Of a DNA stretch of 64,000 bases, positions 4,488 through 18,190 are shown one piece after another (the first letter of the stretch is position 1; every line of letters starts with the position of its first letter). This DNA is from Minisyncoccota bacterium (GTDB lineage: Bacteria > Patescibacteriota > Minisyncoccia > JAHIHE01 > JAGLIN01): the NCBI GenBank assembly GCA_028690055.1, contig JAQVBZ010000004.1, forward strand, positions 1,855-65,854. Direction: 5' to 3'. Position numbers and translations under genes: made by a program. Under the pieces are notes generated by a model. That model did no database searches, was not told the DNA's origin, and saw only the letters and a program-made list of their open reading frames with translations.

Positions 4488-5298
4488 GTGCTAAGATCTC
4501 CTATTTTTTTATCGCGAAATAATTTACCTACAAAACAAAATCGCGAAATCTCGTGAGGGGTTGAAGACTGATAAGCCGTTTTAAATATTGAATAATTTAG
4601 TAATCTATAAGGCCCAAAGCGGACAAATGGAGTTTAGCGGAGATTTTCAAAATTAAACCATCTGGGCTACGCTAGACCAGATTGCCGATGTTTTTGGATG
4701 CGATAAATCTGTCATTTCATAACATTTTAAAAATGTTTTTAAAGAAGGCGAATTGCAGAGAGAATCAGTTGTTGCAAAAAACGCAACAACTGCCAGCGAC
4801 GGTAAAATTTATCAGGTTGAATATTATAATCTGGACACCATTATTCCGTCGGGTACAGGGTCAACTCTATGCAGTCTACAAAATTTCGCCAATAGGCCAC
4901 GAAGACATATGGGACAAATATTTTCGCGCCTTAAAACCCGAATATATTATGTCGTTTCCGAATTGTAGGGGCACAATATCTTGTGCCCTTTTTATCACTA
5001 AAACCGCGAAAGATACGATGCTGACAATAAGGTTATCTTTATAAACAACCTTCGCAAACTCTTACGTATTTCCCGGATACCTCATGCGAGTACGCCTTTT
5101 TCTGGATGAGAAATTACTGGGGGGCTTTAATAAAAATTTTGGTTTTCTCGCTTTACATTCCGCCGACAGGGTTTATACTATAAATGTAGGCTTTAAACGC
5201 GAAAATACCCGGGAACGGGGAATGCACCTAAGAAAACGATGATTTTACAGGGAGGCCGGGGAGAGGCGCTTTTTTAATGGGATTTATAAAAACTTTTT

Positions 5299-6753
5299 AT
5301 GTTTGAACAATCTTTTAAGAATATTGATGATATCTTACGCAAGGATGCTGGGGCGTCGAGCGAGTTGGACTATGTTGAGCAGACTTCCTGGATTCTTTTT
5401 TTGAAATATCTAGACGATCTGGAGAAGGAAAAAGAACTGGCGGCGAAACTTGCCGACCAAGAATATAAATATATTATCTCGCCTAAATACCGTTGGGAGG
5501 CGTGGGCTTGTCCCAAAGGCAAGGATGGAAAACTGGATCACAATACTGCACTTTCGGGCGATGACCTTAAGGACTTTGTGGATCGGGAGCTTTTTCCGTA
5601 TCTGAAGAAATTCTGTGAGGATGCAGTAAGCCCAGATACGATTGAATACAAGATCGGGGAAATTTTTAGTGAAATCAAAAATAAGATCCAGAGTGGATAT
5701 AATCTTCGCGAAGTTTTGAATATTATCGATGCAATGCGTTTTCGCTCTCAGCAGGAAAAGCACGAGCTTTCGCATCTCTATGAAGTCAAGATTAAGAATA
5801 TGGGCAATGCGGGACGAAACGGAGGCGAATACTATACTCCGCGTCCGCTTATCAAGACCATCGTCAAAGTGGTTGATCCCAAAATCGGGGAAACCGTCTA
5901 TGACGGCGCCGTGGGTTCAGCCGGGTTTTTGGTGGAAGCTTTTGAGCATATGAAGGAAAGTAAAAAACTTTCCACAAGCGATATGGACTTTTTGCAGATG
6001 AAAACCTTTTTTGGTAAAGAGAAAAAATCGCTGGCATACATTATCGGGATTATGAATATGATTTTGCACGGCATTGAAGCGCCTAGCATCCGCCATATGA
6101 ATACTCTTTCGGAAAATATTGCCGACTTTCAAGAAAAAGACCGCTTTGATATTGTGCTGGCGAATCCGCCATTTGGCAGCCAAGAGCGCGCGGAAGTCCA
6201 GCAAAATTTCCCCATCAAAACCGGAGAAACCGCTTTTCTTTTCCTTCAACATTTTATAAAAATACTTCGAGCCGGCGGCAGGGCGGGTGTGGTCATCAAA
6301 AACACTTTTCTTTCCAACACCGATAACGCTTCCGTTTCGCTTCGCAAGACGCTCCTCACTGAATGTAATCTCCATACCGTCCTCGACCTTCCCGGTGGCA
6401 CCTTCACCGGCGCGGGTGTGAAAACCGTGATTCTATTTTTTGAAAAAGGCAAACCCACGAAAAAAGTCTGGTTCTATCAACTCAACCTCGACCGCAATCT
6501 CGGCAAGACCAATCCGCTTAGTGAAAAGGATCTGGCTGATTTTCTGAAACTGCAAAAGACCAAAGCTGACAGTGAAAATTCTTGGACGATTGATGTCGCA
6601 GATATTGATGCGAAAACTTTTGACCTCTCGGTTAAGAATCCGAATAAAAATGGGGAAGTGGTTTTGAGAGAGCCGGGGGAGATTTTGGGGGAGATGGAAG
6701 CTTTAAATAAGGAAAGTAATGTGATTTTGTCTAAAATTAGGAAGATATGCTAG
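5299..6753 (+). CDS. hsdM: Type I restriction-modification system, DNA methyltransferase subunit M
   Basis: 484 aa; HsdM N-terminal domain; AdoMet motif I (DGAVGSAGFL) and catalytic motif IV (NPPFG) of N6-adenine methyltransferases. Confidence 0.92.
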   Translation: MFEQSFKNIDDILRKDAGASSELDYVEQTSWILFLKYLDDLEKEKELAAKLADQEYKYIISPKYRWEAWACPKGKDGKLDHNTALSGDDLKDFVDRELFPYLKKFCEDAVSPDTIEYKIGEIFSEIKNKIQSGYNLREVLNIIDAMRFRSQQEKHELSHLYEVKIKNMGNAGRNGGEYYTPRPLIKTIVKVVDPKIGETVYDGAVGSAGFLVEAFEHMKESKKLSTSDMDFLQMKTFFGKEKKSLAYIIGIMNMILHGIEAPSIRHMNTLSENIADFQEKDRFDIVLANPPFGSQERAEVQQNFPIKTGETAFLFLQHFIKILRAGGRAGVVIKNTFLSNTDNASVSLRKTLLTECNLHTVLDLPGGTFTGAGVKTVILFFEKGKPTKKVWFYQLNLDRNLGKTNPLSEKDLADFLKLQKTKADSENSWTIDVADIDAKTFDLSVKNPNKNGEVVLREPGEILGEMEALNKESNVILSKIRKIC

Positions 6754-6805: not shown

Positions 6806-6835
6806 TCATTTGACATTACTAGTATAGTATAATAT
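6806..6835. promoter_or_regulatory. Perfect 10-bp inverted repeat flanking TATAAT-like box upstream of the AAA ATPase gene (candidate operator/promoter)
   Basis: ttactagtat-agtataat-atactagtaa; a second TATAAT at 6857-6862. Confidence 0.35.
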
Positions 6836-6850
6836 ACTAGTAACATACAG

Positions 6851-8296
6851 TTGAAGTATAATAGAATATATATGAATCAGGAACTGGTACAATATTTGCA
6901 ACAACAAATCAGAACGAGTGATGAGAGGTTGAAGCGATTTACGCACGACATAAAAGGAAAGCCATATCCTAGCCGTTTTATGTTTGTAAAATTAAAGCAA
7001 TATGTCAACGATTTTGTTAAAAAGAAATCGACCAACAGGATGGTGATTATGCCGGGCTTTAGAGGCGTGGGAAAGACTACTCTAATGGCTCAAGTGTGCG
7101 CGGAATATAAGAATATGGGATATAATACCCTTTTTCTCTCCGTTGAAGACGCTAATAATCTTTTTGATGTCGGCATCGCAGAGCTAATGTCGGCTTATGA
7201 AAGCATTTTAGGAGAAAATCTAGAAACCGTAAAAAAACCAATCTTGATTTTCCTGGACGAGATTCAGAGCGACCCCAAATGGGCGGTCACACTGAAGTCA
7301 TTGTTTGAGAAAACTTCAAATATATTTTTTTGCTGTACCGGATCTTCAGCCGTTATCTTGCAGACTACGACCAACCTAGCCCGAAGAGCTGTCTTTGAGA
7401 GAATGCCGCCAATGTGTTTTACGGAATATCAGATGGTAAAAAATGAGATATATCCTATGAACGGACTGAAAGAAAAAATCAGGCAGGCGGTATATTTTTC
7501 AAAAGACGCGGATGAAGTTTATGTCAATCTAAAAAAACTTCAGCCTTCCGTCAATCAATATTGGTCAAAGGCGAACAGGTTTGATATTCGGGAATATCTC
7601 TCTTTTGGAACTTTGCCTTTTGCCTTAATGATGCCTAGCGAGTCTGCCGTGTATGACTCCATCTCTCTCTTGCTTGATAAAATCATCAGATATGACTTGC
7701 CGACTTTAGGCAGCTTTGATACGGATACTCTTGGAAATGTAAAAAGAATGCTTTTTTCAATCGCGGAAAACGATACAACCAGTTTAAACGTCCTAGAGGA
7801 AAGATTTAAAATCAATCGTCTAACAATTTCCAATATCTTTGATGCCTTGGTAAGAGCGGAACTGCTTATTGATGTGCCGGCTTATGGATCAAATATGGGG
7901 GTTGCCAAGAAACCGCATAAATATCTTTTTATGACACCGGCAATCAGAATGTCTTTTTTCTATTTTACCGGCAGAGAGGACACTTATTTAACCAGGCAGG
8001 GGAAACTACTGGAAGATTCGGTTGGTTCGCATCTTTATAGAGAATTTATTTTGAGAAATCAAGGCGCGATTCGTTACGACAGCGCAGAGGGTGGAGCTGA
8101 TTTTATTTTACAAATACAAAATAACAAACAAATTATTATTGAAGTGGGGATGGGTAGCAAAGATAAGAAACAGATTATAAACAGCAGTAAAAAAATAAGT
8201 TCGGATTATAATCTGATTTTTTCTAATAGCGAATTAAAAGTCGATCCGGATCTGAAAATCGTGTTTGTGCCGTTGGATTATTATTTTTTGATGTAG
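6851..8296 (+). CDS. AAA+ superfamily ATPase, COG1373-like (AAA_14 + DUF4143-like C-terminal domain)
   Basis: Walker A GFRGVGKTT, Walker B ILIFLDEIQ; C-terminal D…E…K (GGADFILQ…IIIEVGMGSK) reminiscent of a PD-(D/E)xK fold. TTG at 6851 or ATG at 6872. Confidence 0.8.
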   Translation: MKYNRIYMNQELVQYLQQQIRTSDERLKRFTHDIKGKPYPSRFMFVKLKQYVNDFVKKKSTNRMVIMPGFRGVGKTTLMAQVCAEYKNMGYNTLFLSVEDANNLFDVGIAELMSAYESILGENLETVKKPILIFLDEIQSDPKWAVTLKSLFEKTSNIFFCCTGSSAVILQTTTNLARRAVFERMPPMCFTEYQMVKNEIYPMNGLKEKIRQAVYFSKDADEVYVNLKKLQPSVNQYWSKANRFDIREYLSFGTLPFALMMPSESAVYDSISLLLDKIIRYDLPTLGSFDTDTLGNVKRMLFSIAENDTTSLNVLEERFKINRLTISNIFDALVRAELLIDVPAYGSNMGVAKKPHKYLFMTPAIRMSFFYFTGREDTYLTRQGKLLEDSVGSHLYREFILRNQGAIRYDSAEGGADFILQIQNNKQIIIEVGMGSKDKKQIINSSKKISSDYNLIFSNSELKVDPDLKIVFVPLDYYFLM

Positions 8297-8444
8297 GTTA
8301 TCTGAAAAAGGGAAGTGATTTATTAAGGACACATAGAGAGTTCACCGTAAAGCCCTTAAACTATAAAATCATTAATTTGCTTATATTGCACCAGACGCTC
8401 GATGAGCCATATACAAAGATTTAATTGGTTCCATAAATTTTATT

Positions 8445-9056
8445 ATGAGAGAGAAAATTTTGCAAAAATATAGTCGTCTCATACAAGATATAGACGACTC
8501 TTCTGAAAGACCAGGCACGTCAACAATAGTGCGTGTTGTGACTGAGGCTAAAAATTTAATAAGAAAATCCTGTGGTGAGAGTAGTGATCACTATCTAGCA
8601 ATTAAAAGATTAAGTGAAAATTTCCACAGAAACGATTCAAGCCAATATAAAGGGATAATCGAGGCGGCCTATAATGATTATAAGGATGGGTTCACAAACA
8701 TCGACTCGTTTATTAGGGCGGAAATTTTTGAGGACTTTCTTTCAATGTCAGAATATCTTCTTGAGCAAGGATATAACGCTCCGGCCGCTTCTTTGGCGGG
8801 TGGAGTATTAGAAGATTCTTTGCGAAAACTATGTGATAAACATGGCATTTTGTATCCTGAAAAAACAAAGATAAATAGCCTTAATATAGACTTGGCGAAA
8901 GCGGGTGTTTACACTGCTTTAGTGTCAAAAGAAATCATTGCGAAGGCTGATATCAGAAATAGTGCCGACCATGGTAAATTTGAAGAATTAAAAAAAGAAG
9001 ACGTTGAAGAAATGGTTAGATGGGTTCGCAGATTTATTATTGAATATTTAGGATAA
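8445..9056 (+). CDS. HEPN-superfamily protein, DUF4145-like (203 aa)
   Basis: C-terminal …LAKAGVYTALVSKEIIAKADIRNSADHGKFEE… contains the Rx4H motif (R-NSAD-H) in a DUF4145-like context. Stop overlaps the start of the next ORF (TAATGG). Confidence 0.6.
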   Translation: MREKILQKYSRLIQDIDDSSERPGTSTIVRVVTEAKNLIRKSCGESSDHYLAIKRLSENFHRNDSSQYKGIIEAAYNDYKDGFTNIDSFIRAEIFEDFLSMSEYLLEQGYNAPAASLAGGVLEDSLRKLCDKHGILYPEKTKINSLNIDLAKAGVYTALVSKEIIAKADIRNSADHGKFEELKKEDVEEMVRWVRRFIIEYLG

Positions 9057-9643
9057 TGGATGAAAAAGATCAAATAATTTTAGAAGATTCAATTCATGCT
9101 ATTTTGTCCAATATTCCAGGACTGAATATCGCTTGGGGGCTTAGCACGGCTTTATACGGATCGGCTTTGAAACTGAGGCAAAAGAAAGTCCTCGAATGGG
9201 TAGAAATGGTAAGAGATAATCCGAATATTTTTGTTACAGACTTATTGCAAAATGAGTTTTTTCAAGATGGCTTTGCCTATTCCTTGGAAAAGTATGTGGT
9301 CGAAAGAAATGAAGAAAAGAGAAAATATTTTAGGAATATTTTTCTAGGATTTTCATCTAGTAATGATATGCAAAACTTCCCGCTTGAAAAGTTTGTTCAT
9401 ACTCTTTCACAGTTGGGAAAAGTGGACGTTACTGTTTTGGGGGATGTAAATATTATGCAACAGGATAGCGAATATCAGATTTATGGGAATGAAAATCATA
9501 AATTAATTTATATATATAATTTAATAAATCTAGGTATTTTGAGCACAAGTCCAACAACTAGATACGGTCCTATTCACGCACCCTTTGTTCGGGTTTCGGC
9601 GTTTGGAGGAGAATTTATAAAATATATAAAAGATGAAAAATAG
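9056..9643 (+). CDS. hypothetical protein (195 aa), translationally coupled to the HEPN gene and hsdS
   Basis: 1-nt overlap with upstream stop and 11-nt overlap with hsdS start; no recognisable motif. Confidence 0.55.
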   Translation: MDEKDQIILEDSIHAILSNIPGLNIAWGLSTALYGSALKLRQKKVLEWVEMVRDNPNIFVTDLLQNEFFQDGFAYSLEKYVVERNEEKRKYFRNIFLGFSSSNDMQNFPLEKFVHTLSQLGKVDVTVLGDVNIMQQDSEYQIYGNENHKLIYIYNLINLGILSTSPTTRYGPIHAPFVRVSAFGGEFIKYIKDEK

Positions 9644-10811
9644 TTGGCAAACAAAAAAACTTGAAGATGTCTGTAATATTGTTGGCGGAGGAACCCCTTC
9701 TAAAATCAACGAGAGCTTTTATACTGGAAAAATCCTCTGGGCGACTGTAAGAGATATGAAGTCTGACATAATTGAAGACACAGAATACAAAATAACTGAA
9801 GAGGCGATAAAAAATAGTTCAACTAATATTATTCCGAAAAATAATGTTATTATTGCCACACGAGTTGGATTGGGAAAGGTTTGTTTTTCTAAATATGATA
9901 TGGCGGTTAATCAAGACTTAAAAGGTATTATCCCTAGAGATACAAATAGATTGTCTGTGTGTTATTTGTATTGGTGGCTAAAAAGCACCTCAAATATTAT
10001 TGAAGAAAACGGAACTGGTGCAACAGTGCAAGGTGTAAAACTATCGTTTATAAAAAATCTGAGAATCCCCCTTCCTTCTCTCCTTGAGCAAAAACGGATT
10101 GTGAAGATTTTGGATGAGGTTTTTGAGGAGGTGGGGAAGGCGAAAGAAAATGCGGAGAAGAATTTGCGGAATTCTCGCGAGCTTTTTGAGTCGTATTTGC
10201 AGAGTGTTTTTGAGAATAAGGGAGAGGGGTGGGGGGAGAGGAGACTAGGAGACGTTTGCGGAACTGGTGCGGGTGGTACTCCTCTAAAATCTCATAAAGA
10301 ATATTATGAAAATGGCGAAGTCCCCTGGCTTAGAAGTGGTGAGGTAAATAAAAAAGAAGTGATGCGATCAAAAGTTTTTATCTCAGAAGCAGGATTGAAT
10401 AATTCTTCCGCAAGAATGTTTCCTATAAATACAGTATTGATTGCGATGTACGGAGCAACGGCTGGGCAGGTGGGAATTTTGAAATTTGCATCATCCACGA
10501 ATCAAGCAGTTTGCGGAATTTTACCCAACAAAAAATTTTCAGCAGATTTTCTTTATTATGTCTTTCTGTCTAAGAAAAAAGAATTAGTTTCACAAGCAGT
10601 TGGTGGGGCACAGCCGAACATTTCACAGATTAAGATAAAAGATACTTTTATTCCAGTCTTAGAATTATCTGAGCAAAAAGCTATCGTCAAAAAACTTGAT
10701 GCGCTTTCTGAGGAGACGAAGAAGTTGGAGGAGATTTATAAAAAGGAAATTGCCGATTTGGAGGAGTTGAAAAAGTCCGTTTTGCAGAAGGCATTTCGAG
10801 GGGAATTATAA
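9633..10811 (+). CDS. hsdS: Type I restriction-modification system, specificity subunit S
   Basis: 392 aa; two target-recognition domains separated and followed by the conserved coiled-coil repeats (LPSLLEQKRIVKILDEVFEEV… / LSEQKAIVKKLDALSEE…). Confidence 0.9.
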   Translation: MKNSWQTKKLEDVCNIVGGGTPSKINESFYTGKILWATVRDMKSDIIEDTEYKITEEAIKNSSTNIIPKNNVIIATRVGLGKVCFSKYDMAVNQDLKGIIPRDTNRLSVCYLYWWLKSTSNIIEENGTGATVQGVKLSFIKNLRIPLPSLLEQKRIVKILDEVFEEVGKAKENAEKNLRNSRELFESYLQSVFENKGEGWGERRLGDVCGTGAGGTPLKSHKEYYENGEVPWLRSGEVNKKEVMRSKVFISEAGLNNSSARMFPINTVLIAMYGATAGQVGILKFASSTNQAVCGILPNKKFSADFLYYVFLSKKKELVSQAVGGAQPNISQIKIKDTFIPVLELSEQKAIVKKLDALSEETKKLEEIYKKEIADLEELKKSVLQKAFRGEL

Positions 10812-10818
10812 AGTTTAG

Positions 10819-10932
10819 TTGTCATTCCGAGCTTGTCGAGGAATCGCTACACTACGATAAGGCTGCATAATACGGGTTGGATGGTGGTGAAGGGATCCTT
10901 CGACTCCGCTACGCTCCGCTCAGGATGACAAA
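10819..10932. mobile_element. MITE-like element, family A (copy 1 of a tandem pair)
   Basis: ttgtcattccgagc … ctcaggatgacaaa; ~90% identical to the copy at 10967-11080. Confidence 0.65.
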
Positions 10933-10966
10933 TCAAGGGGCTTTTAGAGAGAAAGGTAATTTTTGT

Positions 10967-11080
10967 TTGTCATTCCGAGCTTGTCGAGGAATCTCTTCAT
11001 TACGATAGGGCTGCATAATACGGATTGGGTGGTAGTGAAGGGATCCTTCGACTCCGTTACGCTCTGCTCAGGATGACAAA
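10967..11080. mobile_element. MITE-like element, family A (copy 2 of a tandem pair)
   Basis: Same termini and core as 10819-10932. Confidence 0.65.
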
Positions 11081-11100
11081 AAAAGGAGATGGTGCGGCAT

Positions 11101-11236
11101 GGAGTAGTAGACTTTAGTCTGCGCGGCTGTCCTACGGGGGAGATAATAACGCATACGGCGCATTTATCGGCTTGGGATAGCAGCGCGGGTTAAAACCCGC
11201 TACTCCAAAACGCGCGCGGGTTGAAACCTGTTACTC
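11101..11236. mobile_element. MITE-like element, family B (GGAGTAGYAG…CTGCTACTCC) with partial tandem repeat of its right end
   Basis: ggagtagtagactttagtctgcgc … ggatagcagcgcgggttaaaacccgctactcc, then a second …gggttgaaacctgttactcc. Confidence 0.6.
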
Positions 11237-11326
11237 CAAAACAAAATGTAGCGCGGGATGAATCACATTGCTCCTAGGTATGTGGATGTTATTTGCTTTT
11301 ATCTATGTTTTTGGTAAGATGAAGTT

Positions 11327-12346
11327 ATGAAGTTTACAAGAACAAAAAAACTCTTATTTACGAACAATAAAGGGGGTGTTGGGAAGACAACGCTTGCTTT
11401 TAATTGTGCAATGTCATTTGCAAAGCAAGGCTATAAAACGGTCTTGGTTGACCTGGATCCACAATGCAATCTTTCCCGCCTAGCGCTTGGAGAAGAAGAA
11501 TTTTCAAAAACTTTATTTTCAACTACTCACAAGGATATATCCGATGTGCTTCGAGGTGTGGTTGAGGGTGGGGGTGATGTTGATTTCGCGGTTCCTTTTA
11601 TACCAATTCTAAGAAGTAATTCGAATTTATTTCTTATGAAAGGGAGCGTCGAGCTTTCTCTTTACGAAAATTTGCTTGTGACCGCTTATGGACAAGCTGC
11701 TTCCGGGCAACAAATAGGATACTTTCAGACGAGTGCGATTGACAGATTTCTACGCGAAAGAGGACTGAGTGATGAAGTAGATATTTTTATAATTGATACG
11801 TCGCCTAGTTTGTCCCTGCTTAATCAGATAATATTTCTTGGTTCTGATTATTTTGTGGTGCCAATGATGCCTGATGCTTTTAGTGTGCAGGGAATAGAAA
11901 ACTTGGGGACAATATTTGAGAAATGGAAGACTAATTGGAAAAATACAGGCAAAGCCCTTTCGGGAGATACGGAAAATAAATTTATTTTGTCTGGAGAGGG
12001 ACTGTTTATTGGGTATATAGTGAATTCTTATAACGTATATGGCGGACAGCCCATCAAGGATCATCGGCATTGGATTGATGAAATTCCTGAAAAAGTAAAG
12101 AAATTTCTTTCTGAGAAACATTGTCGAAACGGTTTGGTTGAGAAAAGCTGGAAAGAGCCTATTTCTATTATCAAAGATTATGGAAGAATCCCTGCTATGT
12201 GCCAGGAGCTGGGTGTTGCTATATTTGATTTAGATCCGTCGCTTGTTGAAGATAATCAAATAGGTACAAAGGAAAATATTGAAAAATCGAAGGAGGAATT
12301 CGATAGCTTGTCGAATAGAATACTTAATGTATTGTCTGCTTATTAA
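11327..12346 (+). CDS. ParA/MinD-family P-loop ATPase (orphan, 339 aa)
   Basis: Deviant Walker A NNKGGVGKTT, Walker A' and B (VLVDLDPQ, IFIIDTSP); no parB nearby; extended C-terminus. Confidence 0.8.
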   Translation: MKFTRTKKLLFTNNKGGVGKTTLAFNCAMSFAKQGYKTVLVDLDPQCNLSRLALGEEEFSKTLFSTTHKDISDVLRGVVEGGGDVDFAVPFIPILRSNSNLFLMKGSVELSLYENLLVTAYGQAASGQQIGYFQTSAIDRFLRERGLSDEVDIFIIDTSPSLSLLNQIIFLGSDYFVVPMMPDAFSVQGIENLGTIFEKWKTNWKNTGKALSGDTENKFILSGEGLFIGYIVNSYNVYGGQPIKDHRHWIDEIPEKVKKFLSEKHCRNGLVEKSWKEPISIIKDYGRIPAMCQELGVAIFDLDPSLVEDNQIGTKENIEKSKEEFDSLSNRILNVLSAY

Positions 12347-12396: not shown

Positions 12397-12404
12397 TACC
12401 TATA

Positions 12405-12534
12405 CCGAATTAATTTAATCTGTGGCATAATGATTTCACATTTAGTCCCCCTCACCCCGACCCTCTCCCGATGGGAGAGGGAGAAATCACAAATGCTTTA
12501 CGATTGGGTTGTAGGACAGATTCAGTTAATTCGG
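12405..12534. mobile_element. MITE-like element, family C (TIR CCGAATTAATTTAATCTG; internal CCCTCTCCCGATGGGAGAGGG hairpin)
   Basis: ccgaattaatttaatctgtg … cagattcagttaattcgg; ~85% identical to 17651-17784 and to 38880-39012 (inverted). Confidence 0.65.
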
Positions 12535-12640
12535 TATTATTCTAATGTCTGGAAATAACGCAATCCTTATTCTAGAAAAAGCCCTCAGACTGGAATAACG
12601 AGGACTATGCTTTTTTAGATTTAATTAAAATCATAAAGTA

Positions 12641-14962
12641 ATGAAAACAGAAGCTGACACAAGAGCGGAATATATTGACCCCAAACTTCGCGAGAGCGGA
12701 TGGGGAGAGGTCGAGGGATCGAAAATTCTTCGGGAGTTTCGTTTGACGGAGGGGAAAATTTTGTTGGGGGGAGCAAGGGGAAAAGCAGAGATCGCCGATT
12801 ATGTTTTGGTTTATAGAAATCAGAAAGTGGCGGTGATTGAGGCGAAACGGGAAGAACTGGGCGCAACCGAAGGAGTAGCGCAGGCCAAGGCTTATGCGCA
12901 GAAACTCCAAATCGAATATACATACGCGACCAACGGCAAGGACATTTACGAGATGTCTATGAAGAGCGGGATGGAAGGGTATATTGAGAAATTTCCAAGC
13001 CCGGAAGAGCTTTGGAATAATATTCATAGCGATCATAACCAGTGGCAGGAGAAATTTACTTCTGTGCCATTTGAAATCGTGAACGGAAAGAGTGTAAGAT
13101 ATTATCAGGAGATTGCAGCCAGTCGCGCTTTGGAAGCGATTGCCTTTGAGAAGCAAAGAGTTCTTTTGACTTTGGCCACCGGAACCGGAAAAACTTTTAT
13201 TGCTTTTCAGATCGCTTGGAAGCTATTTCAAACGCGCTGGAATTTGAGACGAGATGGAAAGCGTCAGCCGCGCATCTTGTTTCTCGCCGACCGCAATATT
13301 TTGGCCGGTCAGGCCTTCAACGATTTCTCAGCTTTTCCTGAGGATGCGCTTATTCGCATCAGTCCGCAGGATATCCGAAAGAAGGGAAAAGTGCCGACAA
13401 ACGGAAGTGTGTTTTTTACGATTTTTCAGACATTTATGAGCGGGCCTAATAACACTCCTAGTTACGGAGAATATCCGCCGGATTTTTTTGATTTGATCAT
13501 CATCGACGAATGTCATCGAGGTGGCGCCAACGATGAGAGCAACTGGCGCGGGATTCTGGAATATTTTGCTCCGGCAGTCCAATTGGGGCTTACTGCTACG
13601 CCTAAGAGAAAAGACAATGTCGATACCTATCGCTATTTTGGCGAGCCGGTATATACTTATTCTTTGAAAGAAGGAATTAATGATGGTTTTTTGACACCGT
13701 TCAAAGTTAAAAGAGTAAAGACTACTTTGGATGATTATGTATATACTTCGGACGATGAGCTAATCGAGGGGGAAGTTGAGGAAGGGAAGATTTATGAAGA
13801 GGCGGACTTCAATCGTATTATTGAAATTAAAGAGCGTGAAGCAGAAAGAGTGCGGATTGTTTTAGACGAGATTAAAGAGAATGAGAAAACGATTATTTTT
13901 TGTGCCAATCAGGCGCACGCGCTGGCGGTGCGGGATTTGGTTAATCAGTTTAAGAAAAGTTCCGATCCGGATTATTGCGTGAGAGTTACGGCGAACGATG
14001 GCGCGCGCGGCGATCAATATTTGAAAACATTTCAGGATAATGAAAAAACCATCCCGACTATTTTAACCACCTCGCAAAAACTTTCCACCGGAGTCGATGC
14101 GCGCAATGTTCGCAATATTGTTTTGATGCGGCCCATTAATTCTATGATTGAGTTTAAACAAATTATCGGAAGAGGGACCAGACTTTTTGACGGGAAAGAA
14201 TATTTCACAATTCTGGATTTTGTAGATGCTTACCGGCTATTTGCGGACAAAGAATGGGATGGCGAGCCTATTGAGGAGATTGTTGAAGATGAGTCTATCG
14301 GGATTAAGAAGAAAATAGAAGAGTTTTTTCCTGAGCCTCTCTTGAAAGAGCCGGAAGAGCCGGAAGAGACCAAGAAAAAAATCAAGATTAAATTGCGGGA
14401 CGGAAAAGAGCGGGAAATTCAGCATATGATTTCCACGTCATTTTGGAGCGCGGATGGAAAGCCGATTTCAGCGGAAGAACTACTCCGAAGTATGTTTGGC
14501 AAACTTTCTGAATTTTTTACAAGCGAAGAGCAACTGCGCAGTATTTGGTCAAACCCAAAAACACGAAAGAATTTTCTCGCAAACATTTCCGATGCCGGAT
14601 ACGGAAAGACCGAGCTTGAGGCGCTGCAAAAGATGATAGATGCCGAAAATAGTGATATTTTCGACGTGCTTGCTTACATCGCTTTCGCAATACCGCCGAT
14701 TACTCGAGAGCAAAGAGCGGAGGATGCGAAAGAAAATATTTTTGATGATGCCGAGGAAGAGCAAAGAGATTTTCTGGATTTTGTGCTGCGAAAATATATC
14801 GAAAAGGGTGCGGAGGAACTGGGGGAAGAGAAACTTCCTAAATTATTGGGACTTAAGTATAATTCCATTTCCGATGCGGAACGGACTCTTGGAGGAGTGC
14901 AGGAGATTCGTGCAAGGTTCTTGGATTTGCAGAAAGATTTGTATGAGGTTATATCAAGATAA
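12641..14962 (+). CDS. hsdR: Type I restriction enzyme, endonuclease/helicase subunit R (EcoEI/type IB-like)
   Basis: 773 aa; HsdR N-terminal PD-(D/E)xK nuclease (DYVLVY…VIEAKRE), SF2 helicase motifs (TGTGKT, DECH), C-terminal EcoEI_R_C-like domain. Confidence 0.9.
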   Translation: MKTEADTRAEYIDPKLRESGWGEVEGSKILREFRLTEGKILLGGARGKAEIADYVLVYRNQKVAVIEAKREELGATEGVAQAKAYAQKLQIEYTYATNGKDIYEMSMKSGMEGYIEKFPSPEELWNNIHSDHNQWQEKFTSVPFEIVNGKSVRYYQEIAASRALEAIAFEKQRVLLTLATGTGKTFIAFQIAWKLFQTRWNLRRDGKRQPRILFLADRNILAGQAFNDFSAFPEDALIRISPQDIRKKGKVPTNGSVFFTIFQTFMSGPNNTPSYGEYPPDFFDLIIIDECHRGGANDESNWRGILEYFAPAVQLGLTATPKRKDNVDTYRYFGEPVYTYSLKEGINDGFLTPFKVKRVKTTLDDYVYTSDDELIEGEVEEGKIYEEADFNRIIEIKEREAERVRIVLDEIKENEKTIIFCANQAHALAVRDLVNQFKKSSDPDYCVRVTANDGARGDQYLKTFQDNEKTIPTILTTSQKLSTGVDARNVRNIVLMRPINSMIEFKQIIGRGTRLFDGKEYFTILDFVDAYRLFADKEWDGEPIEEIVEDESIGIKKKIEEFFPEPLLKEPEEPEETKKKIKIKLRDGKEREIQHMISTSFWSADGKPISAEELLRSMFGKLSEFFTSEEQLRSIWSNPKTRKNFLANISDAGYGKTELEALQKMIDAENSDIFDVLAYIAFAIPPITREQRAEDAKENIFDDAEEEQRDFLDFVLRKYIEKGAEELGEEKLPKLLGLKYNSISDAERTLGGVQEIRARFLDLQKDLYEVISR

Positions 14963-15008
14963 AAGATGAAACAATATCTCAATCGAACTATCCATATTGT
15001 CATAATCT

Positions 15009-15082
15009 GGAGTAGCGGGCTATAACTCGCGCGGTTGTCTCAAGGGCATCGGATAGCAGCGCAGACTGAAGTCTGCTACTCC
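15009..15082. mobile_element. MITE-like element, family B
   Basis: ggagtagcgggctataactcgcgcggttgtc … ggatagcagcgcagactgaagtctgctactcc. Confidence 0.6.
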
Positions 15083-15321
15083 GAAATGCGATGCGGAATA
15101 AAGATGTGCGCTCTATGTGTCAAAAAGGAAAAAGATTTTGCAGAATTGAAAAATAAATCATAATAAAACAAAATTAAAACTATGTCAGACACAATCAAAA
15201 AACATTCGCCTTTAAAAAACACTCCACTACGACAGGCGGGAGAATCTCTCAATGATAAACTTCAGGAAATCCTTTACGTAAAGATAATGTCTGTTATCAT
15301 CGCTATTTTTTTGTATTCTTT

Positions 15322-15975
15322 ATGGCTGTTTATGATCTATTCAGACTTTATTTTAATATAGAACCTAGACCTTCGGTCTGGTTTTTGTCTGGCATCTTAT
15401 TAATTTTGTTTTATCGTAATAAATTACAAAATTATTGGCAGGAAGCGAAAAACACCGGGTTGGGAATGCGAGGAGAAAGAATTGTAAGCGAGATGCTATA
15501 TGGACTGAAAAAAGACGGATATGAGATATTTAATGACCTGATCAATGCGAAAGGTAATATTGATCATATCATTGTAGGCCCCGCCGGTGTGTTTACTGTT
15601 GAGACCAAGACCGCTAGTAAAGCTGGAGGTGATCAGAGGATTTCATATGATGGAGAAAATATTAGGATTGATGGGTGGATTCCGAGTAGAAATATTATAA
15701 AACAGGCCTTGGCAGAAAAATATTGGCTAGAAGACTTTATTGCGCAAAGAACTGAAAAGACAGTAACTATCAAAGTCACGCCTGTTGTTATTTACCCAGG
15801 GTGGTTTATTGACCCTTCCTGCCATAAAAGCACGGAGGTTATGATATTAAACGATGACGAGAAAGGATTGCCTGCTCAACTCCAAAAGATGGAAAGGACT
15901 CTTAGTGAAGAGCAGATAGATATTTTGTCTAAACATATCGGAGACCGTATACGAGAGTGTTATAAGGGATCTTAA
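15322..15975 (+). CDS. NERD (nuclease-related domain) protein, membrane-anchored
   Basis: N-terminal TM helix; GERIVSEMLYGL…GYEIFNDL…IDHIIVGPAGVFTVETKT matches the NERD core. Confidence 0.7.
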   Translation: MAVYDLFRLYFNIEPRPSVWFLSGILLILFYRNKLQNYWQEAKNTGLGMRGERIVSEMLYGLKKDGYEIFNDLINAKGNIDHIIVGPAGVFTVETKTASKAGGDQRISYDGENIRIDGWIPSRNIIKQALAEKYWLEDFIAQRTEKTVTIKVTPVVIYPGWFIDPSCHKSTEVMILNDDEKGLPAQLQKMERTLSEEQIDILSKHIGDRIRECYKGS

Positions 15976-16575: not shown

Positions 16576-17358
16576 TTGCGCCCTTACAGGAATAACATAA
16601 ATCTTAATCGTAAAAATATGCCTCTAAAATATGATTTGGATAAAATCAGGTTTGCCACCGATGCGGCGACTTTTGAGAAAGCGGTGGATTTGTGTGAGAA
16701 GGGTAAGGTGACGCGGTTCGAGAGAGGGCCGTATGGGTGTTCTGCGATTGTGTTGGGAACTCATCCGTATAAAGTTTATGTGGAAAACCAGCATTATGAT
16801 CAAGGGGGCTGCGAGTGTTATGTCGCACAGAAGAATATGCTCTGCAAACATATGGTGGCGGTAGCTATTTATGCCGTCAAAGGCGGTAAAAAATTGAGTC
16901 CGGAGGAGAAGATGGCGGCCGGTGGTCCGAAGTGTAGCGGCAAGTTGGGCGAATTGGACAATGAAGAGTTATCTCTCGTCAAACAGACCGTCACTTCGTC
17001 GATGAAATATATAAAGGCGTATGAAGGTCCGTCCAAGGTATGGTTCGCTTATCAGGATTCATTGCAAGAAGGATGCAACCGTTTAGCCAAAGTGGTGTCC
17101 GATTTGCCGGTAAGCAGACAGACTGCAAGTATCGTTGTCGATATGCTTTTACGTTTGGATAAGAAACTTTGCCAAGGCAGGGTGGATGATTCCGAGGGAA
17201 TAGTCGGTGCATTTATTGAAGATGCGGTCGGCGTTCTTGAGGAATATGTCAAACTTGATCCGTCTTGTGCGCAAGCTTTTGCCGCTTTGAGAGACTGGGA
17301 GACTTGTTTCGATTGGGAAAAGCGGCTTGTTGGACTTATTGAAAGTAAAGACGCATAG
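16576..17358 (+). CDS. SWIM zinc-finger domain protein
   Basis: CxCxnCxH motif GCECYVAQKNMLCKHMVAVAIYAV preceded by a β-strand-rich region; more likely start is the internal Met at 16618. Confidence 0.65.
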   Translation: MRPYRNNINLNRKNMPLKYDLDKIRFATDAATFEKAVDLCEKGKVTRFERGPYGCSAIVLGTHPYKVYVENQHYDQGGCECYVAQKNMLCKHMVAVAIYAVKGGKKLSPEEKMAAGGPKCSGKLGELDNEELSLVKQTVTSSMKYIKAYEGPSKVWFAYQDSLQEGCNRLAKVVSDLPVSRQTASIVVDMLLRLDKKLCQGRVDDSEGIVGAFIEDAVGVLEEYVKLDPSCAQAFAALRDWETCFDWEKRLVGLIESKDA

Positions 17359-17650
17359 AATTATCGTCTCGTAATTGCGGAGTCTAATGTTTTTTTCGGG
17401 GGGGGGCGAAGGGAGGAATACAAATGCAACGGAATGCAAAATGCATATAAAATGCCGAAGGGATTATCTATTGTTCCCCCTCACCTCGACCCTCTCCCGA
17501 TGGGCGAGGGAGAAGATACGAGTATTGGAGTTTGTATGCACTGTTGTTATAAAAAAGGGCACAAGATATTGTGCCCCTACGGAATACAAAAGACGCAGGC
17601 GGTGTGTCTTTTTTTGGATGTTGGTTTTTTTGGATGTCATTAGGAAATTA

Positions 17651-17784
17651 TACCAAATCAACTTAATCTGTGACATAATGATTTCACTTTTGTTCCCCCT
17701 CACCCCAACCCTCTCCCGGTAGGAGAGGGAGAAATTCCAAATGCTGTATGACTGGATTATAGGACAGATTTAGTTAATTTGGTA
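17651..17784. mobile_element. MITE-like element, family C
   Basis: taccaaatcaacttaatctg … cagatttagttaatttggta; its right TIR contains the last 4 codons (Pro-Ile-Pro-Asn) and the stop of the pilin-like gene. Confidence 0.65.
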
Positions 17785-18190
17785 TTGGTTGGTCTGCCTG
17801 GGGAGTTTTGCCGGTAAATTTGCAGCCTGTTTCTGTGCAGATGGCGGAGGTGATATCTCCGGCGCGTGTTGGGGGTGGTGTGAATCGGATGGAGAAAGTG
17901 CCGTCCGGATCGCAGTCGCGAAGGACCGTGATGCTGTCGATTGCAGTGGCGGCGGGGTAGGTGTCGGATCCGCCGATGGCGCAGATTTCCTCGTCCGCGA
18001 CATCGTTCAGGCTTCCTCCGTCATAGCAGCACATCAGGGCGGCGGGAACGACGCTTGCGGTTGTTAGCTGAAAGGAGGCGTCATACGCTTTTCCTTGGGC
18101 GAAGAAGATGGAGGAGGCTATCACTATAACCATCTGAGAGGCGATTAAGACTTCGATAGGTATAAATCCTTTATCTTTTTGGATGTGCAT
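17774..18190 (-). CDS. Type IV pilin / pseudopilin-like protein (prepilin N-terminal methylation motif)
   Basis: Start at internal Met of the listed ORF: MHIQKDKGFIPIEVLIASQMVIVIASSIFF fits the class III signal G|F-x-x-x-E plus a hydrophobic helix; Cys-rich C-terminal half. Confidence 0.6.
   Translation of the reverse strand: MHIQKDKGFIPIEVLIASQMVIVIASSIFFAQGKAYDASFQLTTASVVPAALMCCYDGGSLNDVADEEICAIGGSDTYPAATAIDSITVLRDCDPDGTFSIRFTPPPTRAGDITSAICTETGCKFTGKTPQADQPIPN

Follow-up and report, generated by a model that had tools for sequence, protein, structure and literature searches.

The closest described relatives of the locus reported here are PrrC-EcoprrI and RloC, in which an N-terminal ABC/Rad50-like ATPase is fused to a HEPN nuclease in a single polypeptide (the AAA_13 family of Pfam). 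The prrC gene lies inside a type I hsd operon, where it is located between hsdS and hsdR and not between hsdM and hsdS. The coupling of immunity to suicide has been treated in PMC3632139, and at least 16 clades of HEPN proteins have been linked to restriction-modification (R-M) systems in a survey that we cite here in part (Anantharaman, Makarova, Burroughs, Koonin and Aravind, 2013; PMC3710099). The cited part already proposes, in generic terms and by explicit analogy with PrrC, that HEPN proteins and R-M enzymes form a multi-layer defence, and it describes triads of R-M and HEPN genes with Fic/DOC and RhuM. Here we analyse a stretch of 64,000 nucleotides (nt) from a Minisyncoccota bacterium (contig JAQVBZ010000004.1), which we call the window. 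The interval 6851-9643 of the window lies between hsdM and hsdS of a type I R-M operon and holds genes for an ATPase, a HEPN protein of 203 amino acids (aa) and a protein of 195 aa. A preliminary description made from the sequence had taken the three genes for one split PrrC/RloC-like module. We lean instead towards the view that the interval is the variable accessory slot of a horizontally mobile hsdM-hsdS-hsdR operon in a Paceibacterota genome of the candidate phyla radiation (CPR), that the ATPase in it acts independently, and that the HEPN protein is an effector of the abortive infection (Abi) kind. The slot would then hold three genes, each of separate evolutionary origin.

The contents of this interval vary among orthologous operons. 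Five such operons (L140 to L144) were sampled from relatives of the window hsdM, and the genes in these and all other fetched loci (L-numbers) were called with a simple longest-ORF (open reading frame) heuristic. In L141 the order is hsdM, an AAA_15/21 gene, a gene for a 161-aa protein, hsdS, Fic, hsdR and NERD; in L142 it is hsdM, AAA_21, three unknowns, hsdS and, further on, hsdR; and in L143 a single gene for a 183-aa protein separates hsdM from hsdS, which is followed by Fic and hsdR. In L144, from WOR-1, hsdM is followed by Bro-N, DUF2130, a second Bro-N, an AAA_13 gene (887 aa, 12465-15128), hsdS and RhuM. In L140 hsdM is followed by unrelated methylases and there is no hsdS within 8 kb. 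Among loci carrying relatives of the HEPN gene, the cargo between hsdM and hsdS is an AAA_15/AAA_21 ABC-type ATPase, a HEPN protein and a 195-aa protein in L001, and Bro-N and HEPN in L040; in L039 the HEPN gene directly follows hsdM. The hsdM proteins of orthologous operons with differing cargo are 81-95% identical. The small genes before hsdS in L141 (161 aa), L142 (177 aa), L143 (183 aa) and L039 (123/178 aa) are unrelated to the HEPN gene, to the 195-aa gene or to each other. This variability suggests that the interval 6851-9643 is a swappable cargo position. There is a second slot, between hsdS and hsdR, which holds a ParA-like ATPase gene in the window and L037 and Fic in L001, L040, L141 and L143. 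The 'three-level' arrangement of R-M, HEPN and Fic/DOC in the part of PMC3710099 cited above is thus present in the sister loci L001 and L040. A ParA/MinD-like gene is unusual in this place.

The operon itself contains hsdM, hsdS with two Methylase_S stretches, and hsdR, all full length, with the PADLOC MTase_I match of hsdM spanning 1-483 of 484; it is apparently a complete type I R-M system. The window hsdM is 77-95% identical to hsdM of Gracilibacteria, Peregrinibacteria, Omnitrophota, Margulisiibacteriota, WOR-1, Firestonebacteria, Pseudomonadota and others. Such identity across unrelated phyla implies that the backbone has been widely transferred, and it points to a spread of this type I system that was horizontal, wide and very recent. 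The GC content drops across the cargo genes. No tRNA integration site was found in positions 1-22000 of the window, and no paralogues were found inside it. Reportedly, type I R-M loci of Campylobacter jejuni carry variable 'rlo' cargo genes between the hsd genes, an observation of Miller et al. in 2005 that is cited in PMC3632139. There, as here, unrelated accessory inserts between hsd genes differ among otherwise orthologous loci; the gene families and the host phylum are different, and the likeness is drawn by description only.

The 203-aa protein had been described as ending in a DUF4145-like segment that carries a HEPN motif, RNSADH. Its best Pfam match is to HEPN (PF05168), at 21.9 bits against a cut-off of 22, and it does not match DUF4145 (PF13643) at E<=0.1. 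Among 32 members of its family 24 match PF05168 and seven match DUF4145 (best 6.5e-07), and there are also matches to RiboL-PSP-HEPN or Swt1-HEPN. The DUF4145 label fits the window protein only loosely. In an alignment of the 32 relatives, which reach down to 30% identity, R171, N172, A174, H176, G177 and E123 are invariant, and RNSADH has the Rx4-6H form with a polar residue after the arginine. The protein has the all-alpha helical-bundle fold of the superfamily, with residues 1-80 forming an additional helical extension, and it is structurally similar to the HEPN toxins 7ae2, 5yep and 8xdj. With this fold and a motif conserved among its relatives, the 203-aa protein is genuinely of the HEPN superfamily; its Rx4H motif is intact, and RNase activity is predicted for it. 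It shares with the R-M-linked clades in the cited part of PMC3710099 a HEPN domain (stand-alone or fused in those clades), the Rx4-6H motif and an R-M neighbourhood. The particular PF05168-like clade, with its N-terminal helical extension of about 80 aa and its coupling to the 195-aa gene and hsdS, was not identified in that part of the survey, the supplementary family lists aside.

The exact 203-aa sequence is absent from a collection of 15 billion proteins in which both flanking proteins of the same metagenome-assembled genome are present. The gene may have been called there from another start (for example TTG 8460, as the 198-aa protein P0001) or not called at all. Eighteen HEPN relatives (29-44% identity) are encoded on predicted viral or proviral contigs of IMG/VR (L117-L134).

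The HEPN gene is tightly joined to its downstream neighbours, as the preliminary description had noted. Its stop codon and the start of the 195-aa gene share one base (TAATG, 9054-9058), and hsdS begins inside the 195-aa ORF, with an overlap of 11 nt. Only 6 of the 55 same-strand neighbour pairs in the window overlap, the median gap being 97 nt. Since overlaps are uncommon here, the coupling of the HEPN gene, the 195-aa gene and hsdS is not mere genome compaction and is meaningful. The cassette of overlapping HEPN and 195-aa genes is kept in L037 (93% identical) and in L001 (74%). The ORFs themselves are as first described (481 or 474 aa for the ATPase, depending on the start, then 203 and 195 aa, then hsdS; Table 1), but the claim that all three cargo genes are coupled to hsdS was not borne out: the ATPase ORF (from 6851) is set off by 97 nt from hsdM and by 148 nt from the HEPN gene. 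Judged by gene spacing, translational coupling is limited to the HEPN gene, the 195-aa gene and hsdS, and the HEPN protein would be made in a fixed proportion to HsdS. In L037 (7189-9238) a 279-aa ORF shares 11 nt with the 195-aa gene and is followed by a separate full hsdS at 8006-9238, which suggests that the specificity gene of L037 is split or duplicated.

Table 1. Genes and other features of the type I operon in the window
Feature	Position	Strand	Basis or remark
hsdM, type I R-M methyltransferase subunit	5299..6753	+	Pfam N6_Mtase 5e-66, HsdM_N; PADLOC MTase_I 1.8e-160
AAA_14 + DUF4143 ATPase/PD-(D/E)xK protein (COG1373; PDC-S01)	6872..8296	+	Alternative TTG start 6851
Non-coding gap of 148 nt, ATPase to HEPN gene	8297..8444	+	Sequence
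Gene for stand-alone 203-aa HEPN protein	8445..9056	+	Helical extension ~aa 1-80, HEPN domain ~aa 86-203
RNSADH, Rx4H catalytic motif of the HEPN domain (R171...H176)	8955..8972	+	Translation
Gene for 195-aa protein; family ('U195') unnamed and mostly of CPR	9056..9643	+	Conserved helical N-domain ~aa 1-137, putative C-terminal winged helix
hsdS, specificity subunit	9633..10811	+	Pfam Methylase_S 1e-56, two target recognition domains; PADLOC Specificity_I 1.3e-96
ParA/MinD-like ATPase gene in the hsdS-hsdR slot	11327..12346	+	Pfam AAA_31 5e-28, CbiA; PHROG ParA-like 2e-36
hsdR, restriction/helicase subunit	12641..14962	+	Pfam ResIII 2e-36, EcoEI_R_C 8e-27; PADLOC REase_I 2.2e-141

The first cargo gene encodes an ATPase with Pfam domains AAA_14 (4e-24) and DUF4143 (3.5e-07). 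The Walker A (GFRGVGKT, 7055-7078) and Walker B (ILIFLDEIQ, 7241-7267) motifs reported earlier agree with the translation. The nuclease-like C-terminus suspected at the same time corresponds to DUF4143, a PD-(D/E)XK family that is already known, DUF4143/COG1373 being catalogued among such families (PMC3424549). Seven PDC-S01 models of PADLOC match the protein, the best at 6.7e-30 over residues 45-453. The PDC-S01/COG1373 architecture, an AAA_14 P-loop domain and then DUF4143, is complete in the window ATPase and shows no notable difference. PDC-S01, which joins an ATPase to a PD-(D/E)xK domain, is very common in prokaryotes and is a candidate for defence by a single gene, its antiviral activity being without experimental validation (PMC12988326). 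The 474-aa form starting at ATG 6872 is deposited as MDD3006246.1. There is a promoter-like sequence, TTGACA-17-TATACT (6810-6838, + strand), upstream of the ATPase gene, which scores 11/12 and is the best sigma-70-like site in a 10.5-kb scan. It overlaps a near-perfect palindrome, TTACTAGTATA-G-TATAATATACTAGTAA, at 6816-6845, within 6810..6845 of the + strand. A possible role of this palindrome is that of an operator, bound perhaps by the winged-helix region of the ATPase itself. The stretch between about 6808 and the ATPase ATG is 100% conserved in L037, and the adjacent sequence diverges. The gap 8297-8444 is about 86% identical to that of L037 and contains a weak promoter-like site (8341-8369); no terminator-like site was found in these 148 nt. 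Taken together, these features lead us to infer that the ATPase gene, uncoupled from the HEPN gene, is expressed from its own conserved, palindrome-bearing promoter-like site and that the ATPase acts independently.

These results bear directly on the proposal that the ATPase, the HEPN protein and the 195-aa protein are one split PrrC/RloC-like fail-safe, in which the NTPase regulates an anticodon nuclease that the R-M complex keeps latent. In its favour, the HEPN gene lies within a type I R-M operon with hsdM, hsdS and hsdR on its flanks, as for PrrC; an NTPase gene precedes it in the window and L037 (AAA_14) and in L001 (AAA_15/21, ABC-type); and a true AAA_13 gene occupies the same slot in L144. 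The comparative loci disagree, however, with a single module. The NTPase is exchanged: that of L001 is not homologous to that of the window, and L039 and L040 have none. A Walker-A protein is found upstream of the HEPN gene at only 3 of about 90 scanned loci of the HEPN family, so that there is no conserved ATPase-HEPN gene pair. The 195-aa partner is as rare: among about 100 HEPN-family loci (80 metagenomic, 18 from IMG/VR and 6 from look-ups) it is present at three, namely the window, L037 (93%, with the same architecture) and L001 (74%). PrrC and RloC are fused polypeptides, whereas the window HEPN protein is stand-alone, has no P-loop and carries a different helical N-terminal extension; the neighbouring ATPase is of the AAA_14-DUF4143 type and not ABC/Rad50-like, it is separated by the 148-nt gap and has its own promoter-like site, and PDC-S01 is defined as a single-gene candidate (PMC12988326). 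Neither the ATPase nor the HEPN protein has a Pfam match to AAA_13, and BLASTP against the AAA_13 protein of L144 gave E=0.34 and E=1.6, which is no similarity. We therefore regard a split PrrC/RloC system as very improbable. What survives of the analogy is the presence of a HEPN gene inside a type I operon, together with the AAA_13 gene, of the PrrC/RloC family, in the same slot of L144, which makes a PrrC-like back-up role for the HEPN protein plausible. That role, a latent RNase serving as a second line when restriction is defeated, is the logic proposed for PrrC in the cited part of PMC3710099, and we infer it here from slot position and from the literature. The HEPN protein would be active as a dimer, through its paired Rx4H motifs, and would provide a second layer of the abortive-infection type once restriction fails. 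Silencing of the HEPN protein by the R-M complex, in the way that EcoprrI restrains PrrC until an anti-restriction factor activates it to cleave the tRNA anticodon loop, is doubtful. The order AAA_13-hsdS-RhuM in L144 matches a published arrangement of PrrC-like, R-M and RhuM genes (PMC3710099, in the part cited).

The 195-aa protein has no match in Pfam, NCBIfam, PADLOC, PHROGs or the PDB by sequence search, and a structure search against the BFVD viral structures gave nothing significant. With a pI of 5.4 the protein is acidic; it lacks a transmembrane segment and bears no relation to the HEPN protein. A membrane effector was considered because of a conserved hydrophobic N-terminal segment (IPGLNIAWGLS...) and rejected: the maximum Kyte-Doolittle mean over 19 residues is 1.13, with no classical transmembrane helix. 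The family has more than 277 relatives, with a mean column identity of 56%, and a full profile scan gave 352 clusters at 50% identity; nearly all members are from Patescibacteria/CPR genomes, and there are no IMG/VR loci. Longer members retain only the N-domain (aa 1-137), without the winged helix, and in P0312 (514 aa, from the representative library) a family N-domain is fused to an Mrr_cat restriction-endonuclease domain. Neighbourhoods were examined at about 35 loci. Only in the window, L037 and L001 does a HEPN gene precede the 195-aa gene, which in other loci overlaps, or lies within 25 nt of, varied defence genes. These partners are a CBASS cyclase (L007; PADLOC 5e-177), a PifA/KAP NTPase (L011 and L012; 6e-90), an Mrr_cat nuclease whose gene overlaps the start of the 195-aa homologue (L005), type IIG enzymes (L009 and L139), an SF1 helicase with an MTES_1575 nuclease (L025; PDC-S37), hsdR (L015) and hsdM (L027). 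The gene right after the 195-aa gene is in many cases hsdS or an M-S fusion (window, L037, L001, L016, L027 and L022). Apart from this, the conserved neighbours are only lineage-local clusters, such as the membrane protein gene after the 195-aa gene in L011-L013. The latter encodes a conserved, apparently multi-pass protein of 164-173 aa (L011, 3120-3641; L012, 8600-9121; L013, 8585-9079) and lies 8 nt downstream of the 195-aa homologue in L011 and L012 and overlaps it by 4 nt in L013. The pair of 195-aa homologue and membrane protein is preceded by PifA in L011 and L012, and in L013 by a gene for a 367-aa protein with no Pfam or PADLOC match. The coupling of 195-aa genes behind HEPN, CBASS cyclase, PifA, Mrr, type IIG and type I genes, their position before hsdS and the Mrr_cat fusion together suggest, tentatively, that this undescribed and mostly CPR family is a portable accessory module (a shared sensor, adaptor or regulator) of many defence systems. 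Beside the window HEPN gene, the 195-aa protein would be either a local regulatory or neutralising partner of the HEPN protein or a general accessory of restriction-type enzymes.

Other relationships among the three genes can be envisaged. The HEPN and 195-aa genes could be a toxin-antitoxin (TA) pair that does no more than stabilise a mobile R-M island and is functionally independent of restriction. TA systems with HEPN toxins are known, and the window pair resembles the HEPN-MNT (minimal nucleotidyltransferase) modules of type II/VII in its best Pfam family (PF05168), in its similarity to 8xdj and to the HEPN-MNT toxins 7ae2 and 5yep, and in its two overlapping genes. The 1-nt stop/start overlap is kept in three loci, the partner is acidic with a putative winged helix, like many autoregulating antitoxins, and next to some HEPN relatives there are small genes of various kinds in tight linkage. 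There is, however, no minimal nucleotidyltransferase gene beside the window HEPN gene, whose partner is an unrelated putative winged-helix protein; because the window neighbours are not nucleotidyltransferases, the 203-aa gene does not belong to a HEPN-MNT module. Neighbour clustering found no recurring partner family at the roughly 100 HEPN loci, although this clustering was not aimed at MNT or NTP_transf-type domains. The HEPN family is nearly always without a 195-aa partner, the 195-aa family follows many genes that are not HEPN (CBASS cyclase, PifA, Mrr, type IIG, hsdR, hsdM), and the pair is also coupled to hsdS, which would be needless for a self-contained TA module. A TA pair is therefore quite unlikely. 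Only a little more probable, and still unlikely, is a 195-aa protein that is a DNA-binding regulator or accessory of defence operons, comparable with winged-helix regulators and C proteins, next to a HEPN protein that is an independent, single-gene Abi-type effector. Its recurrence right before hsdS or M-S fusions and after R-M enzymes, and the fusion in P0312, agree with such a role, but the protein is acidic, its gene lies downstream in operons and not at their head, and the longer members lose the winged helix.

A simpler explanation, which we rate somewhat above these two yet still as rather improbable, is plain co-location, a permissive slot having gathered independent genes, selfish or for defence, that do not interact functionally with each other or with the R-M enzyme. 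All three families occur mostly apart from the other two, the genes in the slot differ greatly from one orthologous operon to the next, the cargo has a lower GC content, and the island is bracketed by repeats resembling miniature inverted-repeat transposable elements (MITEs) and by a 29-nt inverted repeat. Yet the overlaps of the HEPN gene, the 195-aa gene and hsdS force co-expression and are kept across loci with 74-93% protein identity, the upstream context of hsdS depends on the HEPN/195-aa cassette, and PrrC is a precedent for cargo that is functionally wired to the R-M complex (PMC3710099, as cited in part). An accessory slot with an independent ATPase and an Abi-like HEPN effector remains the explanation that we favour. 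It is supported by the closest HEPN subclade (at least 66% identity), where 5 of 7 distinct loci have the gene beside hsdM or between hsdM and hsdS. Other observations weigh against it. Outside this subclade most members of the HEPN family stand in no recognisable R-M operon, and their neighbours are not conserved. The hsdM-linked loci share one orthologous operon backbone and so may represent one ancestral insertion and not repeated selection. R-M genes near distant HEPN relatives were sought by single-sequence phmmer with the window proteins, an incomplete method by which R-M linkage may be under-counted. Finally, the many different partners of the 195-aa protein argue against a specific antitoxin role, and a general accessory or regulator of restriction-type genes, or an independent island gene, would fit it better.

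Several repeats surround the operon. The two 29-nt arms of a perfect inverted repeat (GTAGGGGCACAATATCTTGTGCCCTTTTT and the reverse complement), 12.6 kb apart at 4965-4993 and 17552-17580, bracket the whole island from hsdM to a SWIM-domain gene. Each arm consists of a hairpin and a T-run, so the arms may be facing terminators or island boundaries. A MITE-like element of 138 nt (12401-12538), with terminal inverted repeats at 12402-12423 and 12516-12537, lies between the ParA-like gene and hsdR, and another copy, with 86% identity, is found beyond the SWIM gene (17649-17786). The C-rich 46-nt core of this element occurs four times in the window, including at 17470 and 18350. Two 130-nt direct repeats start from the hsdS stop codon (10809-11086). 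A 46-nt hairpin repeat occurs three times (regions 11169-11245 and 15008-15090), and an inverted pair of it (11171-11207 and 15008-15044) flanks the ParA-like gene and hsdR. Downstream of hsdR are a NERD nuclease-related gene (15322-15975) and the SWIM gene (16576-17358; PADLOC PDC-S62, 3.8e-15). Homologues follow hsdR in sister loci, SWIM in L040 and L006 and NERD in L141, L016, L004 and L023.

A HEPN gene in an R-M operon as a PrrC-like back-up is an established prediction, of which this locus is another case, in a CPR genome. Should the HEPN gene encode a functional back-up RNase, restriction systems with a suicide or dormancy layer, an idea that rests experimentally almost wholly on PrrC, would gain a further example in a barely studied uncultivated phylum. 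The same hsdM backbone is found with AAA_13, with AAA_15/21, with Bro-N, or with HEPN with or without the 195-aa protein, and provides a natural series on slot position versus wiring to the R-M enzyme. The only fresh element is the uncharacterised 195-aa family, which is unnamed, abundant in CPR, well conserved and linked with no fewer than eight kinds of defence gene. If it is a portable module, several immune systems of ultra-small bacteria would plug into one shared sensor, adaptor or regulator, and this family is the only element here that might lead to something new.

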